From: a virus
Taxonomy: Duplodnaviria; Caudoviricetes
Virus record (IMG/VR): IMGVR_UViG_3300035493_000006
Coordinates: 1-43,670 of that record
Direction: 5' to 3' (one strand)
DNA: 43,670 nucleotides
Every line of letters starts with the position of its first letter. Position 1 is the first letter of the stretch. Positions 1,173 through 38,622 of this stretch are shown piece by piece. Below the pieces are notes generated by a model. It was not told the origin of the DNA. It worked only from the letters and a program-made list of their open reading frames with translations, and ran no database searches. Position numbers and translations under genes: made by a program.

Positions 1173-1215
1173 AGGTACTGCGGGACCCCACCCCCTAGCC
1201 CGCAGTTTTGATTCG
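1173..1215 (+). other. Candidate cos/packaging-site region (cosQ-like AGGTACT plus ACTGCGGG/CCCGCAGT inverted repeat)
   Basis: Non-coding gap just upstream of terS, where cos lies in phages with GpA-type terminase. AGGTACT (1173-1179) resembles lambda cosQ GGGTCCT. An 8-bp inverted repeat at 1177-1184/1199-1206 is followed by TTT, so it could alternatively be a terminator. Confidence 0.4.
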
Positions 1216-1255
1216 ACCGCGCAGGCCTCGCACAGAATCGGACTTTTCGCGGCGC

Positions 1256-1284
1256 TTTGCATTCGAGGGGAGGGGCGCTATAAT
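1256..1284 (+). promoter_or_regulatory. Sigma70-like promoter for terS (TTTGCA-N17-TATAAT) with KOPS octamer GGGGAGGG in the spacer
   Basis: Perfect TATAAT at 1279-1284, TTGCAT at 1257-1262, GGGGAGGG at 1267-1274. Confidence 0.65.
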
Positions 1285-1294
1285 CCCCTATGCC

Positions 1295-2173
1295 ATGCAA
1301 AATTTAATTTCTAAATCCAAATTCGCCCAGATGGCAGGCGTTAACCCTTCTACAGTGACGCGGCTAAGCGAAACCATTCTTAAGGCGGCTATCGTCGGTA
1401 AGAAGGTCGACTCCGCCCACCCAGACGCGGTTAAGTACCTGCAGGATAGGGAGCGAGAACAGACTCCGCCGGCTGCTACAGGCCTCGACCCGCTCTACGA
1501 AGAAGCGGTCGCAGCTTGCGACGCAGCGGGCCGGTACTCGATAACATTCGTACAGAAGGCGTTACGAGTGGGGTATAACCGCGCCTCGAAGTTAGTCGGC
1601 GTTATGAAGGCTAACGGCCTGGTCCCAGACCCGGAAGGCGAGAAAGTAACGCTTACGTCGGAAGAAGCCCCACCCGTGGTTATGGATAAAGCGGTCGCCG
1701 AGCGCCTGGGGCTACTTGGCGGAAAGCCACGCGGCCAGGCTGCGGTTAAGGAGGCGAAGAAGCGCTCCGCACCGCCGGAGGATTACGTCTTCGAAGTGCC
1801 GGAGGATATCCAGGCGTTCGCCGATATGACACTCCGCGAGCTGGTGGAAAAGTTCGGTACCGACGTACGCTTCCTGGATTGGTTGAAGGCCACAAAGGCT
1901 ATAGAGGATATCAACGAAAAGCGCCTTAAGAACGCGCAGACGAAGGGCGAGTTAGTTAGCCGCTCACTGGTTAGGGTCGGCATAGTAGAGCCCATAGACT
2001 CGGCCCATATTAAGTTACTTACGGATGGCGCGAAAACTATCGCCAGGCGTTCTACGGCCATGCACGACGCCGGCCGAGACCTGGAAGATATCGAGAAGTT
2101 CGTCGCCGACCAGATATCGAGCTTTATTCGCCCGGTTAAGGCGAAGGTAGCGAGGGCGTTAAAGGATGCCTAA
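1295..2173 (+). CDS. terS: Terminase small subunit (Nu1-like) with inserted FtsK gamma domain
   Basis: Overlaps the terL start. N-terminal HTH (LISKSKFAQMAGVNPSTVTRL), C-terminal Nu1-like RLKNAQTKGELVSR, internal DPLYEEAV...SITFVQKALRVGYNRASKLVGVMKANGLV matching FtsK gamma. ATG 1295 is preferred over TTG 1208 because a promoter lies between them. Confidence 0.85.
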   Translation: MQNLISKSKFAQMAGVNPSTVTRLSETILKAAIVGKKVDSAHPDAVKYLQDREREQTPPAATGLDPLYEEAVAACDAAGRYSITFVQKALRVGYNRASKLVGVMKANGLVPDPEGEKVTLTSEEAPPVVMDKAVAERLGLLGGKPRGQAAVKEAKKRSAPPEDYVFEVPEDIQAFADMTLRELVEKFGTDVRFLDWLKATKAIEDINEKRLKNAQTKGELVSRSLVRVGIVEPIDSAHIKLLTDGAKTIARRSTAMHDAGRDLEDIEKFVADQISSFIRPVKAKVARALKDA

Positions 2174-4163
2174 ACTAGAAACACTTGGCGCCGACTGGAT
2201 TATCGAGCAGGTCGGGGGGCTTACGGACGAGATACACCACGTAACGCCGGCGCAGTATAACGAGGAAAACCGCTACTTACCGGAGTCGGTTACCTCTATC
2301 CCTGGATACATTCGCTACGACGTTAACCCGTTTATGCGGGAAATTGTCGATTGCTTCGATATCGATAGCCCGGTCCGGGAAGTGAACCTTAAGAAAGGCG
2401 TACAGATTACCTACTCTACGGTATTGGAATCTGGCGCCCTGTACTTTATGGGTCACGTTAAAACGCTGCCTATCATGTATATGACCGCCGATAAGGAGCT
2501 CGCAGCGGCGCGTATCGAGAATAACTTCTTACCGATGCTTAACCACTCCGGGTTAGCGCATATTATCCGCAGTAGCGACGAAGGTAACAGCCGTAAAACC
2601 GGTAAAACGGCGAATCATTTACAATTCGAGGGGGGCGGTTATCTGGTCCCGTTCGGCGCGAAAAACGCCGACAAAATGCGCTCGTACTCTATCGCCGTGC
2701 TACTTAAGGACGAGGTCGACGCCTGGCCCGATACAGTCGGTAAGGACGGGGACCCGGACGCGCTAAGCGACGACCGATGCTCGGCCTACTGGGAGCGCCG
2801 TAAAATATTCCGGGGGTCCACCCCGCTAATTAAGGGTAAATCAAAAATCGAGGCGGCCTTCCAGCGCGGCGACCAGCGTATCTACCGCGTATTGTGTAAG
2901 GCCTGCGGATTCCCCCAGGCGCTACGCTGGCGTACGGTAGATAAAGACACCGGCGTTATCGGCGGTTTCCAGTGGGAGACGGATAGCGGTATCCTGGTCC
3001 TGGAATCCGTCCGCTATTGTTGCCAGAACTGCGGCGAACCTCACTACGAACACGATAAGGAGCGGCTATTCTCCGAGGACCACGGGGCGCACTGGCACCC
3101 GACGGCCAGACCCGTAGAGCCCGGTATCCGTTCCTACCATCTACCCGCGCTTTACTCGCCTATCGGTATGCAGCCCTGGTATAAGTGCGTAAGCGCCTAC
3201 CTCCGTGGCTTTGACCCTGTAGAACAGAAGGTCCGCGATATTACTAAGTACCAGGTATTTTATAACAATATCCTGGCGGAGCCGTTCGAGATAATGGGCG
3301 CTAAAATTCGCTTTACCAGCGTATCGGCGCACCGGCGCGCGGTTTATCGTCTCGGCCAGATACCGAACGAATACGCGATTAAGAACAGCGGCTCGCCTAT
3401 CCTGTTCCTCACTTGCCAGGTCGACGTACATAAAAATAACCTGGCCGTATCGGTCATGGGCTGGACCCGCGACGCTAAATGCTACGTGGTAGACTACTGG
3501 CGCTTTGAGGTCGAAGGCGACGCCGACGACTGCAGCGAATTAAGTAGTCCGGTATGGGGGCGCCTGCGAGAGCTTATCGAGGAAACCGTCTATACGGCCG
3601 ACAACGGCCGGAAGTACCGGCTAGCGCTTACGCTAATCGACGCCGGCTACGCTAACGATACCGTTACTAATTTCTGTGCGGACTATGCCGCCGGCGTCTA
3701 TCCTATCCTGGGCCGCGACCGACCAGGTAAGAACCAGACTATTAAGGAGTTCGCGGAATTCCGGACCCAGTCCGGTACCGTCGGCTATCGTATCCTGGTC
3801 GACCACTATAAGGACCGGCTAGCCCCGGTACTACGTAGGGAGTGGGCCGAGGAAGCCGGCGAGCAGAAGGCATACCACTTTAACGCACCCGTGGATATCA
3901 CGGATAAGCAGCTTAAGGAGCTTACCGTCGAGACCCGCCGCGAGAAGCAGGACGATAAGGGTAATACGGTTTACTATTGGTACCGCCCTGGTAATGCTCG
4001 TAACGAGTTGTGGGACTTGTTATGCTACGGCCACGCCGGCGTAGAAATCCTGGCCTGGGCTATCTGTATCCAGCACTTCGAATTAAAAACGGTAGACTGG
4101 CCGACCTTCTGGGATTACGCGGAAAGCCCGGGTACGGACGACATATTCGGCCGCGTCGCTTAA
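2166..4163 (+). CDS. terL: Terminase large subunit, lambda GpA family
   Basis: 665 aa. KKGVQITYST Walker A variant, LLKDEVD Walker B, GSTP coupling motif, CKAC/CQNC zinc motifs, QVDV and IDAGY nuclease motifs, RNELWDLLCY C-terminal motif. Confidence 0.95.
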   Translation: MPKLETLGADWIIEQVGGLTDEIHHVTPAQYNEENRYLPESVTSIPGYIRYDVNPFMREIVDCFDIDSPVREVNLKKGVQITYSTVLESGALYFMGHVKTLPIMYMTADKELAAARIENNFLPMLNHSGLAHIIRSSDEGNSRKTGKTANHLQFEGGGYLVPFGAKNADKMRSYSIAVLLKDEVDAWPDTVGKDGDPDALSDDRCSAYWERRKIFRGSTPLIKGKSKIEAAFQRGDQRIYRVLCKACGFPQALRWRTVDKDTGVIGGFQWETDSGILVLESVRYCCQNCGEPHYEHDKERLFSEDHGAHWHPTARPVEPGIRSYHLPALYSPIGMQPWYKCVSAYLRGFDPVEQKVRDITKYQVFYNNILAEPFEIMGAKIRFTSVSAHRRAVYRLGQIPNEYAIKNSGSPILFLTCQVDVHKNNLAVSVMGWTRDAKCYVVDYWRFEVEGDADDCSELSSPVWGRLRELIEETVYTADNGRKYRLALTLIDAGYANDTVTNFCADYAAGVYPILGRDRPGKNQTIKEFAEFRTQSGTVGYRILVDHYKDRLAPVLRREWAEEAGEQKAYHFNAPVDITDKQLKELTVETRREKQDDKGNTVYYWYRPGNARNELWDLLCYGHAGVEILAWAICIQHFELKTVDWPTFWDYAESPGTDDIFGRVA

Positions 4164-4166
4164 TAT

Positions 4167-4195
4167 TTTGCTATTTATTGGCCAGGCGGTATACT
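4167..4195 (+). promoter_or_regulatory. Sigma70-like promoter for the gpW-portal operon (TTTGCT-N17-TATACT)
   Basis: Intergenic. Same layout as the terS promoter: TTTGC, 17-bp spacer ending GGCG(C/G), TATA(A/C)T. Confidence 0.6.
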
Positions 4196-4246
4196 GTACG
4201 CTACTAATACCAGATTATTTTAACTACCCGAGGGCGGGGCTATGTA

Positions 4247-4501
4247 ATGGACGCAGCTTTCCTACAGGCACGAATTGACGCGACGAAAGCGCAAATTATA
4301 GCGTACGAAGACGCGGCTACGGCTTTGGCTAGTGGCGGCGTACAGTCGTATACGCTTGATACCGGGCAGAGCCGCCAGACCGTTACCCGTCTCGACCTTG
4401 ATAACCTGCAAAAGACTATAGACTCCCTCTATAACCGACTGGCTACCTTAGAAGCCCGGCTTAATGGGAGCGGAACGATAACCGCGAGGCCAGCATGGTA
4501 A
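4247..4501 (+). CDS. Head completion protein, gpW-like
   Basis: 84 aa between TerL and portal; helix-hairpin-helix pattern (VQSYTLDTGQSRQTVTRLDL). Confidence 0.8.
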   Translation: MDAAFLQARIDATKAQIIAYEDAATALASGGVQSYTLDTGQSRQTVTRLDLDNLQKTIDSLYNRLATLEARLNGSGTITARPAW

Positions 4502-6171
4502 GTCTAAACCCGCTTAACTGGTTCCGCAGTAAAGACGCGGAAACGAATAGCAACGTAACAGCCGTAGACGAGCTGGACCCGTTCGCCTATTCCGGGCAGA
4601 CTGCTTTTTCTCCCTGGGAGTCGTCTATCTTCGACGGCGGTAAATTTTTCGGGGGCTTCGGCCCGACACAGATACAGCTAACCGACTACTGGACGCTACG
4701 CGCCAGGTCCGCCCAACTATTTAACGAAAACCTCTACGCCCGTGGCCTTATCCGTCGCCTCGTTACTAACGAGATAAATACCGGTTTAACTCCGGAAGCG
4801 GCGCCCGACGAGCAAATTATCGGCGTAGCGGAAGATAGCCTTAACGACTGGACCGAGACGGTAGAAAACCGCTTCGGTATCTGGTCAAAATCTCCGGAGC
4901 TATGCGACTGGAAAGCTACCTCGACTTTTGGGGCTATCCAACGCGCGGCCCGCGCCGAAGCACTCATTAGCGGCGACGTCCTGGTCGTACTGCGCCAGTC
5001 CCAGCGTACTAAATTACCTATGGTACAGCTCGTTAGCGGTAGTAAAGTCCAGACGCCATTAGGCGGCGAAGTTAATATCCGGAAAGGCCACATAATCCGC
5101 CACGGCGTTGAATTCGATACCGTAGGGCGAGTAGCCGCGCACTGGATTAAACAGGACGACGGTAGCTCGAAACGTATACCGGCATTCGGCGAGAAGTCCG
5201 GCCGCCGTATCTCCTGGCTGGTTTACGGGTCCGATAAGCGACTCGACGACGTTCGCGGCCAGCCGTTGCTATCCCTGGTACTGCAATCCCTTAAAGAAAT
5301 CGATCGTTACCGCGATAGCGCGCAGCGTAAGGCCGTTATTAACTCCGTCCTCGCTATGTTTATCGAGAAGACGGAAGACAAAGCCGGCACCCTTCCGGTA
5401 ACTGGTGGCGCGGTCCGCCGCGATAAAGCGACGACGACTGATAGCGACGGGAAAAAGCGCTCGTTTAATATCGCTAACCAGATACCAGGCTTAGTAATGG
5501 AAGAACTACAGACCGGAGAAAAGCCGGTCGGATTCCATAGCCAGGGTACCGACGTTAATTTCGGTACGTTCGAAGAAGCGATTATCCAGGCCGTAGCGTG
5601 GGCGAACGAAATACCGCCAGAAATACTACGCCTAGCCTTTTCGAATAATTACTCGGCGAGCCAGGCGGCTATTAACGAATTTAAAATCTATCTTAATAAA
5701 GTCTGGTCGGACTGGGGCGAAACTTTCTGTACTCCGGTATACGTGGAATGGCTGCTTAGCGAAACGCTACTGCAGAAAATCCGCGCGCCAGGTCTACTCG
5801 ATTCCTGGCGGGACCCGCGTAAATACGATATTTTCGGCGCGTGGGTTTCTACGGATTGGTACGGCTCGATTAAGCCTTCTACCGATATGCTTAAGCAAGC
5901 TAAAGGCTCTAAAATGCTGGTGGACGAGGGCTGGTCGACTAACGCCCGCGAGGCCCGTATTACGACCGGGACAAAATTTTCTAAGAACATTAAGCGGCTT
6001 AAGCGCGAAAACGAGCTTAAAGTCGAAGCAGCTAGGCCCCTGGCGGAGTTCCGCGCAGAGTTCGGCGACCAGGTGGCGGAAGAAACTATCGGAGCCCTGG
6101 ACGGTCCGGAGGAATTGGAAGCTATGCTCGACGAGTATTTAGAAGAAAAGTGGCTCGTAAATGCTGGATAA
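4495..6171 (+). CDS. Portal protein, lambda gpB family
   Basis: LRARSAQLFNENLYARG, VRGQPLL and NYSASQAA motifs; 558 aa; position in the head block. Confidence 0.93.
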   Translation: MVSLNPLNWFRSKDAETNSNVTAVDELDPFAYSGQTAFSPWESSIFDGGKFFGGFGPTQIQLTDYWTLRARSAQLFNENLYARGLIRRLVTNEINTGLTPEAAPDEQIIGVAEDSLNDWTETVENRFGIWSKSPELCDWKATSTFGAIQRAARAEALISGDVLVVLRQSQRTKLPMVQLVSGSKVQTPLGGEVNIRKGHIIRHGVEFDTVGRVAAHWIKQDDGSSKRIPAFGEKSGRRISWLVYGSDKRLDDVRGQPLLSLVLQSLKEIDRYRDSAQRKAVINSVLAMFIEKTEDKAGTLPVTGGAVRRDKATTTDSDGKKRSFNIANQIPGLVMEELQTGEKPVGFHSQGTDVNFGTFEEAIIQAVAWANEIPPEILRLAFSNNYSASQAAINEFKIYLNKVWSDWGETFCTPVYVEWLLSETLLQKIRAPGLLDSWRDPRKYDIFGAWVSTDWYGSIKPSTDMLKQAKGSKMLVDEGWSTNAREARITTGTKFSKNIKRLKRENELKVEAARPLAEFRAEFGDQVAEETIGALDGPEELEAMLDEYLEEKWLVNAG

Positions 6172-6853
6172 ATTGACGGCCGCCGTAAAGCAACTTTTAA
6201 CCGATAACCGCGACTTCTCTACCAGGCTGGAACGTCTGGAAAAAGTTAAGCCGGCCGTCGTTAATGGCAGGGACGGGAAAGACGGAAAGGACGGCGTTAG
6301 CCCGGATATCGAAACTATCGTCGCCGCCGTTGTTAATGAATTACCGGGGCCGGAAAAAATCGATACGAAAGCTATCGTTAACGACGTCCTGGCCCAGATT
6401 CCAAAGCCACGCGACGGGCGGGACGCGCCAGCCGTTAACGTATCAGACGTAGCGGCTATCGTACTGGCTAAAATCCCTACGCCTAAAGACGGAAAGGACG
6501 GCCATAACGGCCCAGACCTGGAAACCGTCGTTAGACGAGTTAAGGCCCAGGTAAAAGACGGCAAGCCCGGCGAGCGTGGGCCGAAAGGCGATAAAGGCGA
6601 GCCGGGTAAAGACGGCGTTAGCGTTACAGACGTCCAGCTTAAAAATAACGAGCTATTCGTCTGGCTTGATGGCGTTAAGCGCGCCGTCGGTAAAATTAAA
6701 ATGCCGGCGGTTACAGCTCCGTTTAGTCCTGGCAATGGCGGCGGCGGAATACCTAAGCTACCCGACGATATCGCGCGTATAGGCCTTTTTGACTATAACG
6801 ACCTGGCTACCCAGACCACGCCGATAAATATACCTTCGGGGCCCGTTTACTAA
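6161..6853 (+). CDS. Collagen-like (Gly-X-Y) head-fibre-like protein, N-terminal part of a frameshifted gene
   Basis: GRDGKDGKDG and GKPGERGPKGDKGEPGKDG triplets, repeated PKPRDG/PTPKDG units; stops abruptly at 6853 while the +1 frame continues. Confidence 0.75.
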   Translation: MLDKLTAAVKQLLTDNRDFSTRLERLEKVKPAVVNGRDGKDGKDGVSPDIETIVAAVVNELPGPEKIDTKAIVNDVLAQIPKPRDGRDAPAVNVSDVAAIVLAKIPTPKDGKDGHNGPDLETVVRRVKAQVKDGKPGERGPKGDKGEPGKDGVSVTDVQLKNNELFVWLDGVKRAVGKIKMPAVTAPFSPGNGGGGIPKLPDDIARIGLFDYNDLATQTTPINIPSGPVY

Positions 6854-38118: not shown

Positions 38119-38622
38119 ATGAAGCGAGAACACGTAAAGGAAACCGCTGTTGCCATGGTGCGAGAAGCGGGCCTTATTAACCTTTCACGCCGCGAGTTAT
38201 GCGACCGCGCGGGTATTCCGGACGGGTCCTTCCCGCACGTTATGGGCTGCAATTTTGCCGACTTTGTCGAGGAGTTGCGCGAAGATGGCGTCGAGCAATC
38301 ATTCGCCGCAGTAAGTAAGCGGCGCGCTAACCCAGCGCTACGTAAAGACTATATTCTCGCCGTAGCCGTGGATATGGCTAAGGGCGTCGGGTACCATAAA
38401 CTTACCCGCGACGCCGTCGCAGAGAAAGCCGGGGTATCTATGGGCCTGGTTACTCGTTACTTCGGGACTATGAAACAATTGCGCCGCGACGTTATGCGCC
38501 GCGCGATTAAGGAGAATATCCCCGAGATTGTCGCCCAGGGCCTAGCCAATGGCGACGACCACGCTAAGAAGGCGCCGGCAGAGCTTAAAGCCATAGCCGC
38601 GACAATGTTAGCGAATTTCTGA
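38119..38622 (+). CDS. Transcriptional regulator with TetR-type HTH (apparently tandem)
   Basis: RKDYILAVAVDMAKGVGYHKLTRDAVAEKAGVSMGLVTRYFGT is a TetR N-terminal HTH; a similar unit occurs at the N-terminus. Confidence 0.85.
   Translation: MKREHVKETAVAMVREAGLINLSRRELCDRAGIPDGSFPHVMGCNFADFVEELREDGVEQSFAAVSKRRANPALRKDYILAVAVDMAKGVGYHKLTRDAVAEKAGVSMGLVTRYFGTMKQLRRDVMRRAIKENIPEIVAQGLANGDDHAKKAPAELKAIAATMLANF

Follow-up and report, generated by a model that had tools for sequence, protein, structure and literature searches.

An FtsK gamma domain within the predicted small terminase of a family of lytic cos myophages

The virus record IMGVR_UViG_3300035493_000006 of IMG/VR (Duplodnaviria; Caudoviricetes), analysed here over its 43,670 nucleotides and called the window in the following, encodes a predicted small terminase (TerS; 1295-2173, plus strand, 292 amino acids) in which a domain of the FtsK gamma type follows an N-terminal helix-turn-helix (HTH). 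In FtsK this domain reads the polar octamers known as KOPS (FtsK orienting polar sequences), and one such octamer lies in the promoter of the terminase gene itself. The question is whether a sensor of chromosome orientation has been joined to a packaging motor, or whether gamma serves the terminase in another way. With a probability of roughly 0.55, and on the basis of sequence comparison, we favour a lambda-type TerS in which the HTH likely selects the packaging site, while gamma is likely an optional, sequence-relaxed grip on DNA and not a KOPS reader.

Residues of the gamma domain and the KOPS octamer

That a gamma domain is present in a small terminase beside cos, as the original prediction had claimed, was confirmed. 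Pfam assigns residues 65-117 to FtsK_gamma (E 6.4e-13; the score of 48.7 bits exceeds the cut-off, 30.6); the peptide DPLYEEAVAACDAAGRYSITFVQKALRVGYNRASKLVGVMKANGLV corresponds to residues 65-110 of the 292, and gamma is 42.6% identical to residues 1265-1311 of E. coli FtsK (47 amino acids). A profile built from 52 family members has FtsK gamma entries as its only significant matches in the PDB. The AlphaFold model of the domain superposes on gamma of P. aeruginosa (2ve8; Z 9.0, root-mean-square deviation 3.3, 54 aligned residues) and on that of E. coli (5dcf; Z 8.9, deviation 0.8, 47 residues), and a Foldseek search with the whole TerS model, without any match at E<=0.001, ranked gamma entries on top. 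This is the only gamma match in the window genome, and TerS contains no translocase motor domain.

For comparison 96 distinct TerS with their upstream regions were collected, 85 of which had a recognisable cos-linked region (11 were dropped). At 90% identity the 85 loci form 76 clusters, 50 with gamma (gamma+) and 26 without it (gamma-less). From 19 further candidates held out of this set ten loci were usable (4 gamma+, 6 gamma-less); five were dropped for want of cos-linked upstream DNA, two because they were truncated versions of a type already known, and two for degenerate gamma scores.

The residues of E. coli gamma which read KOPS are given as N1296, R1300 and E1303 (PMC2533119). They align with N95, K99 and G102 of the window protein, and the complete N/R/E set is found in 3 of 121 homologues and in none of the 50 gamma+ clusters. 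The window protein retains YNR as in FtsK, whereas its nearest kin carry WE in place of YN (W94/E95). Of the residues in this segment R96 is present in 222 of 225 aligned gamma domains; positions 94, 95, 99 and 102 vary, and the wing region is poorly conserved across the family.

The octamer GGGGAGGG does occur where it had been described, at 1267-1274 between TTTGCA (1256-1261) and TATAAT (1279-1284), two hexamers which match the promoter consensus at 10 of 12 positions and form the predicted terS promoter. Its count in the window is not above chance (four against 7.1 expected, with 93 of 100 shuffled sequences scoring as high). The idea that relatives would keep the octamer alongside the domain failed, an outcome which the original prediction had named as refuting it: GGGNAGGG lies between cos and the ATG in 4 of the 50 gamma+ and 0 of the 26 gamma-less clusters, and 42 permutations of the same letters reach a mean of 3.3 gamma+ clusters. 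A fifth gamma+ locus with the octamer (L134) was lost at the cos filter, and none of the four held-out gamma+ loci has it. Residue and octamer do not go together either, as the octamer is absent from all nine N95-bearing cluster representatives, and the four representatives in which it occurs are all without N95. The octamer is kept or re-formed (GGGAAGGG) in Shewanella phage SppYZU01, L003 and L004, and the three nearest relatives retain an octamer, yet have W94/E95 in gamma. The suggested count over whole genomes brought neither enrichment nor depletion against a reversed control (57 vs 62 in 22 gamma+ records, 36 vs 45 in 10 gamma-less records).

KOPS as a conserved promoter element was rejected on these numbers, and with the KOPS-specific residues lost (K99, G102) and an octamer that does not track the domain, a KOPS-reading gamma is not supported. 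Judged from the aligned promoters, the site is coincidental as an octamer, apparently a by-product of a G-tract which forms one arm of an inverted repeat. Because the octamer is missing from most relatives, gamma is likely an optional additional grip on DNA.

The domain itself is not debris. Over 14 pairs of sequences the ratio of non-synonymous to synonymous substitution rates (dN/dS) is 0.22 for gamma, the same as for the HTH, and 0.07 for the C-terminus; for the ten surface tip positions of gamma it is 0.41. By this measure the core of gamma is under purifying selection. On a tree of the large terminase (TerL) the presence of gamma changes eight times, at least six of them forced, counts which cannot separate gain from loss, and a single clade of gamma+ phages is rejected (p-AU, the approximately unbiased test, 1.3e-7). 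Gamma is, as these comparisons have it, optional and repeatedly lost or swapped. Codons 73-100 of terS show dense silent differences to L001, L003 and L004 together with the YN/WE change, which suggests that the recognition segment of gamma was exchanged by recombination among phages that are 94-96% identical. Degenerate gamma-like inserts under the 25-bit threshold were seen in L345, L361 and L159 and are possible intermediates of loss.

Recognition helix, boxes and the genome end

Outside gamma, the N-terminal HTH has as its best folds Xis (4j2n, Z 6.1), 7lxs (Z 5.7, 27% identity) and 6hn7 (Z 5.7), the latter two tying with Xis and BldC at middling Z. Going by the entry titles, the chains in 7lxs and 6hn7 are taken to be lambda TerS or its Rpp partner. 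The HTH also has a weak match to PHROG 57 (E 1e-4). The claim of Nu1-like flanks thus stood for the N-terminal HTH, by fold and this weak match, while a Nu1-like C-terminus is only a lead: the hhalign probability is 0.4%, the ESM Atlas gives DUF1441 0.89 and Phage_Nu1 0.83, no Pfam match above cut-off was found for the C-terminal region, and its helices match generic bundles only. Profile and pairwise comparison of TerS gave no significant sequence match to lambda Nu1. From gene position and the analogy with lambda, the C-terminal region is presumed to be the part for oligomerisation and TerL binding.

The box at -35 varies between phages (TTGC, TTAAC, TTGAC, TTAC, TGAAC) and has a second copy 11 bp upstream. 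In 27 of the 33 clusters that allowed both copies to be classed, the two classes coincide (mean 9.6 and maximum 19 in shuffles). When the mutual information between box class and each of the 292 protein columns was calculated over 41 gamma+ clusters with a classed box, column 19 came out on top (z 12.8), followed by 17, 20, 23 and 18, whereas the best gamma column reached z 4.8. Gamma had been proposed as the sensor of the cos site, but the residues that track the DNA near cos are those of the N-terminal HTH. Ser19 is accompanied by TTGC in 16 of 18 cases and a non-serine residue in 0 of 34. On the TerL tree, with 12 and 13 state changes, agreement is seen in 5.7 of 6 independent pairs (p 0.03 as the median of sign tests). 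Gamma-less proteins obey the same code between helix and box (L049, L062 and L164, all with TTGC), and in the held-out loci, read by eye, eight of ten fit the rule, all of them negative cases. In lambda the recognition helix comprises residues 17-24 and R3 lies at bp 50-65 (PMC9026076), and the packaging specificity of lambda as against phage 21 is described as set by pairs of helix and box (PMC4669245). The lambda-type matching of a recognition helix to cosB boxes is found here statistically, by co-variation. Because residues 17-23 co-vary with the box, the fold ranks with 7lxs and 6hn7 and the helix of lambda spans residues 17-24, the N-terminal HTH is likely the reader of the packaging site, as in lambda and 21. 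The terS promoter is a probable target of TerS, which agrees with what had been suggested.

Of the 59 clusters in which a -10-like hexamer was found, 51 have it 6 or 7 nt upstream of the ATG, and from this spacing we infer a leaderless terS transcript. In the window the distance between -10 and start is 10 nt, and an out-of-frame ATG is present at 1290.

The predicted cos beside terS was supported and could be placed from the contig termini of relatives. Their contigs repeatedly start at GTTTTGATTC (window 1205), with 20 of 32 pattern matches lying exactly at a contig end; of 12 contigs that were read at both ends, 8 overlap at their termini by exactly 15 nt, and the right end lies 15 nt past the first G in 13 of 16 cases. 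As both ends retain the 15 nt, the polarity would be 5', and the genome end is probably a 15-nt 5' cohesive end at 1205-1219. Its first ten bases are conserved and its final five vary between phages. A looser scan for the cos pattern gave mostly unrelated matches.

By its position the GGTACTG element may play the role of cosQ. In lambda a GGTCC core lies 24 nt before the genome end, according to sequence comparison, and this motif is presumably cosQ. The spacer between the cosQ-like element and cosN differs in sequence even between relatives of 94-96% identity and flips between G-runs and C-runs among near-identical phages. A link of gamma to this hypervariable spacer was dropped because the spacer varies equally in gamma-less phages (L057 vs L059), and a link of gamma to CCC before CTCGCACA (25/50 vs 6/26) fails in independent pairs. 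No IHF consensus was found near cos with at most one mismatch allowed. The terS start codon is at bp 91 of the genome; phage N15, for which a simple cos without IHF site is reported, has its start at bp 89 (PMC9026076).

Explanations for the gamma domain

According to the explanation which we favour, a TerS oligomer would dock its HTHs on the repeated boxes just inside the predicted cohesive end, and gamma, through its invariant R96, would contact the backbone and lend stability to the initiation complex, which sits on a short cosB lacking an IHF consensus. Since one box is also the -35 hexamer, TerS bound there would repress its own promoter. Isolated gamma domains are reported to bind DNA weakly and to require oligomerisation (PMC3384302). 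Gamma would then be a retained grip on the DNA backbone with relaxed base specificity. L004, the nearest kin, has the same promoter boxes from cos to -10 as the window, but W94/E95.

Several points weigh against this explanation. The identity as TerS rests on gene position, fold and weak profile matches. The box classes were defined after inspecting the loci, and 18 of 74 clusters, five of them with Ser19, were without a classed box and excluded from the co-variation test. The only held-out case of Ser19 (L388) and the only one of TTGC (L144) both break the rule. A late-gene activator instead of TerS could bind the boxes, the HTH co-varying with them by tight linkage. Furthermore, an aromatic residue 94 accompanies AGGG-like sites in 19 of 27 cases as against 3 of 23, a sign of a sequence-sensitive gamma, and 27 of 50 gamma+ clusters have G/C runs of at least four within the last 32 bp, against 1 of 26 gamma-less clusters, at equal GC content of the coding sequence.

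Since G/C runs are commoner in gamma+ promoters, gamma may bind there, though not as a reader of the octamer, and to this extent its proposed binding in the terS promoter is partly rescued. One arrangement which would explain it is a composite operator: each TerS subunit would read a half-site, the box being contacted by the HTH and the neighbouring G-tract by gamma, and a dimer would span a palindrome from the -35 box to an inverted box in the first codons, thereby shutting off terS, the 35-bp promoter being bent as IHF bends lambda between R3 and R2. Of 42 gamma+ clusters 24 carry their own box again, in inverted form, among the first 12 bases of the coding sequence, where swapping gives 8.3 (p<0.0002), and 0 of 15 gamma-less clusters do so; box and ATG are separated by 33-38 bp in 39 of the 42 gamma+ and 5 of the 15 gamma-less clusters; and Gln2 is encoded by CAA in eight of eight gamma+ cases, while in the rest of the gene CAA serves 129 of 308 Gln codons. 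In 47 gamma+ clusters the inverted repeat round the -10 has a duplex value of -5.45, against -3.93 when swapped and -4.04 when letter-shuffled, and in 12 gamma-less clusters it is weaker and not significant. Held-out loci have G/C runs in 4 of 4 gamma+ and 1 of 6 gamma-less cases, each gamma monomer of FtsK is reported to read one GGG triplet (PMC3384302), and the lack of an IHF consensus at cos would fit as well. All these features were, however, first spotted visually. For the G-run and inverted-box features the pairs that take the tree into account number 4-6, too few, and at no point give a significant result; the held-out inverted box occurs in 0 of 4 gamma+ loci (two with unsure starts) and 1 of 6 gamma-less loci; and in unbiased scans against the G-tract features the best gamma column has z 3.9-4.4 and ranks below columns outside gamma. 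Translation may favour A/T-rich first codons, and the arms of the inverted repeat are 12 to 29 nt apart, unlike a fixed operator. An operator of fixed spacing was thus rejected, as was an RNA hairpin of unusual stability, the window's 61-nt hairpin being no stabler than shuffles (z 0.11). Altogether we regard the composite operator as a tentative possibility. The palindrome across the promoter suggests, by analogy, the R3-I1-R2 arrangement of lambda; that gamma was captured independently of the Bacillus case discussed below and rewired as a built-in substitute for IHF, with a TerS dimer clamping a 45-bp palindrome, is a speculation we consider doubtful. If true, packaging initiation would be coupled to the shut-off of the terminase operon, and a residue-to-base code would be readable across some fifty natural variants.

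The remaining explanations have less in their favour. Gamma might no longer bind DNA and be a protein-contact or spacer module, for oligomerisation, for contact with TerL or a host factor, or as a decoy against packaging hijack. A variable recognition tip, the signs of a swap over codons 73-100 in 94-96% identical phages, the purifying selection on the core and the optional nature of the domain are compatible with this, but the nearly invariant R96, the link to promoter G-runs and the lack of an identified partner make it unlikely. Even less probable appears an interference with the host, in which gamma would mimic FtsK, activating or blocking XerD or competing for host KOPS. The nine-mer of E. 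coli FtsK that activates XerD (1289-1297) does align with TerS residues 88-96, and among 225 gamma domains 102 have R and 55 have K at the position of R1289. R1289 is described as a key XerD contact, and R1297, the equivalent of the invariant R96, as making none (PMC5052618); the window protein has K88 at the R1289 position, the other surface positions vary widely, and no integrase or Xer-like match was found among the 45 window open reading frames scanned against PHROGs. Gamma domains on other proteins of phi297 and Vibrio phage 416E50-1 have kept GYNRAA better than most TerS copies. Finally, gamma could read the polar octamer in the terS promoter or genome-wide, orienting the motor or discriminating host DNA. 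The octamer in the promoter, its retention or re-formation in three relatives, the 4/50 against 0/26 and the YNR of the window speak for it; set against 46 of 50 gamma+ clusters without the octamer, permutations that score equally, N95 and octamer never being found together in cluster representatives, 0/4 in held-out loci, genome counts no higher than the reversed control and K/G at the equivalents of R1300/E1303, we give it hardly any credence.

Phage context and known systems

The terS gene adjoins and overlaps a gpA-type terL just inside cos, the position of gpNu1 in lambda. The window (43.7 kb) has the gene content of a myophage, with portal, S49 protease, lambda-type capsid and tail sheath, and encodes also a DNA polymerase A, primase, helicases and a TetR-like regulator. 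Among isolates Shewanella phage SppYZU01 comes closest (TerS 95.5%, TerL 98.2% identity). Positions 900-2400 are covered in full by a single contig from each of the runs X1 and X2, without any differing letter being listed, and the window may derive from these. A protein search gave 507 TerS homologues; HTH and gamma occur together in 119 of the 120 best, and among 150 more diverse representatives gamma is present in 101 of the 144 HTH-bearing proteins. A search of prokaryote genomes for prophages gave three loci only, all near contig ends in bins of metagenome-assembled genomes, and so few loci fit a lytic family. The layout of HTH, gamma and helical C-terminus recurs across a large family of cos myophages that are lytic. 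Table 1 gives the features of the locus.

Table 1. Features of the cos-terS-terL region of the window
Feature	Position	Strand	Basis or remark
cosQ-like element, GGTACTG after A-run	1174..1180	+	24-26 nt before left end in 20 distinct junctions
G/C-rich hypervariable spacer, cosQ-like element to nick	1181..1204	.	length near-constant, 24-26 nt
cosN, probable 15-nt 5' cohesive end GTTTTGATTCGACCG	1205..1219	+	contig termini of relatives
Conserved CTCGCACA motif just inside left end	1227..1234	+	in gamma+ and gamma-less relatives
Upstream degenerate copy of HTH box, 11-bp period	1245..1250	+	class agreement with proximal copy
HTH box TTTGCA, also -35 hexamer, R3-like, genome bp 52-57	1256..1261	+	co-varies with TerS residues 17, 19, 20, 23
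G-tract in promoter spacer, contains GGGGAGGG (1267-1274); left inverted-repeat arm	1266..1275	+	octamer not conserved
-10 hexamer TATAAT of predicted terS promoter	1279..1284	+	promoter match; 10 nt before ATG
C-tract, right inverted-repeat arm	1285..1289	-	sequence
TerS N-terminal winged HTH, residues 1-56	1295..1462	+	Xis/MerR/lambda-TerS fold; model pLDDT 87
Inverted HTH box TGCAAA in terS codons 1-3	1296..1301	-	own-box recurrence in gamma+ clusters
FtsK gamma domain, residues about 63-111	1481..1627	+	Pfam, profile, alignment, structure superposition
Conserved helical C-terminal region, residues 165-292	1787..2173	+	long helices in model; dN/dS 0.07
terL, lambda gpA type	2166..4163	+	Pfam GpA_ATPase E 5.5e-44, GpA_nuclease E 1.6e-37

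Some further observations concern the surroundings. A tail-completion or minor-tail gene (PHROG 4688; 429-1136) lies at the right genome end, where cos separates it from the other virion genes, and is similarly placed in five of five relatives searched. A TetR-family HTH gene (38119-38622, E 7.6e-12) directly precedes the primase gene in this apparently lytic phage. A collagen-like repeat protein is encoded between portal and protease (6161-6853); the region differs from SppYZU01, which has an additional gene between terL and adaptor. Acinetobacter phage Scuro (L002) has a TerS homologue at 3923-4477, annotated with 184 amino acids, on which neither the HTH nor the gamma profile scores, and the cos motif of the window family was not found upstream of it. 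At the 5' ends of L007 and L010 the first 100-plus bases resemble terL joined to the cos region; they are probably chimeric contig ends.

Databases give the full-length kin of this TerS no small-terminase name. PHROG 13700, which matches the window protein over its full length (E 2.4e-161), is labelled 'FtsK/SpoIIIE-like protein', and gp04 of SppYZU01 (ARB06241.1, 95.5% identical) 'hypothetical protein', while a distant homologue in Aeromonas phage AeroV_348 does carry the small-terminase annotation. A widespread family is re-annotated here as small terminases and supplied with a map of cos with a 15-nt end. With the code between helix and box and a culturable member, SppYZU01 on Shewanella baltica, packaging specificity and a possible autorepression by TerS become directly testable. 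The comparison also provides the test which the KOPS hypothesis of 2021, described below, lacked, as domain and octamer do not go together in the window family. No new packaging mechanism follows, unless the HTH and gamma do read a joint operator. Searches that left most subscription journals uncovered found by title no literature on TerS autoregulation, and no published account of the TerS-gamma fusion of this family or of SppYZU01 beyond the precedent in Bacillus phages and a paper on mycobacteriophage FtsK.

In comparison with known systems, the window resembles lambda gpNu1/gpA in the gpA-type TerL, the N-terminal winged HTH fold, the recognition helix at 17-24, an R3-like box at bp 52-57 and a cosQ-like motif at a similar distance, and it shares with N15 a similar position of the start codon. 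Unlike lambda, it has a 15-nt instead of a 12-nt end, an added gamma, a sigma70-like promoter overlapping the boxes and no significant Nu1 sequence match, and it is a lytic myovirus with its own DNA polymerase. Its gamma is like that of FtsK/SpoIIIE (PF09397; PDB 2J5P, 2VE8, 2VE9, 5DCF) in fold and core sequence, but differs in that no translocase is attached, N/R/E are not conserved and the genomes have no polar octamer. As a mobile add-on gamma is known also from other phage proteins, namely RdgC fusions of Pseudomonas phages, gp12 of phi297 and P0036 of Vibrio phage 416E50-1; these carriers lie outside the packaging module, and the two examined keep GYNRAA.

The closest precedent is found in two phages of Bacillus, vB_BcM_Sam46 and Sam112 (QIQ61202.1), for which Kazantseva et al. 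2021 describe a small terminase with an N-terminal FtsK_gamma and Terminase_2 (PMC8190038). The authors propose KOPS/SRS-like sites, with just two E. coli KOPS per genome (PMC8190038), and while the original prediction knew of no terminase of this architecture, a gamma-bearing small terminase with the same hypothesis, in another TerS family, has been in print since 2021. In Sam46 and Sam112 gamma is N-terminal on Terminase_2, packaging is headful from pac and the host is a Bacillus; in the window gamma is internal, the HTH is lambda-like, the C-terminus is different and without a Terminase_2 match, TerL is of the gpA type and the ends are cohesive. Gamma alone aligns with Sam46 (32% over 53 amino acids), and the HTH and C-terminal profiles miss it. 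Since the similarity is confined to gamma, the domain was likely captured separately in a lambda-type system, which would make this the second, seemingly independent case of a packaging protein acquiring FtsK gamma. Both the class of architecture and the KOPS idea have been published before, and the fusion in a lambda-type cos family adds to them.

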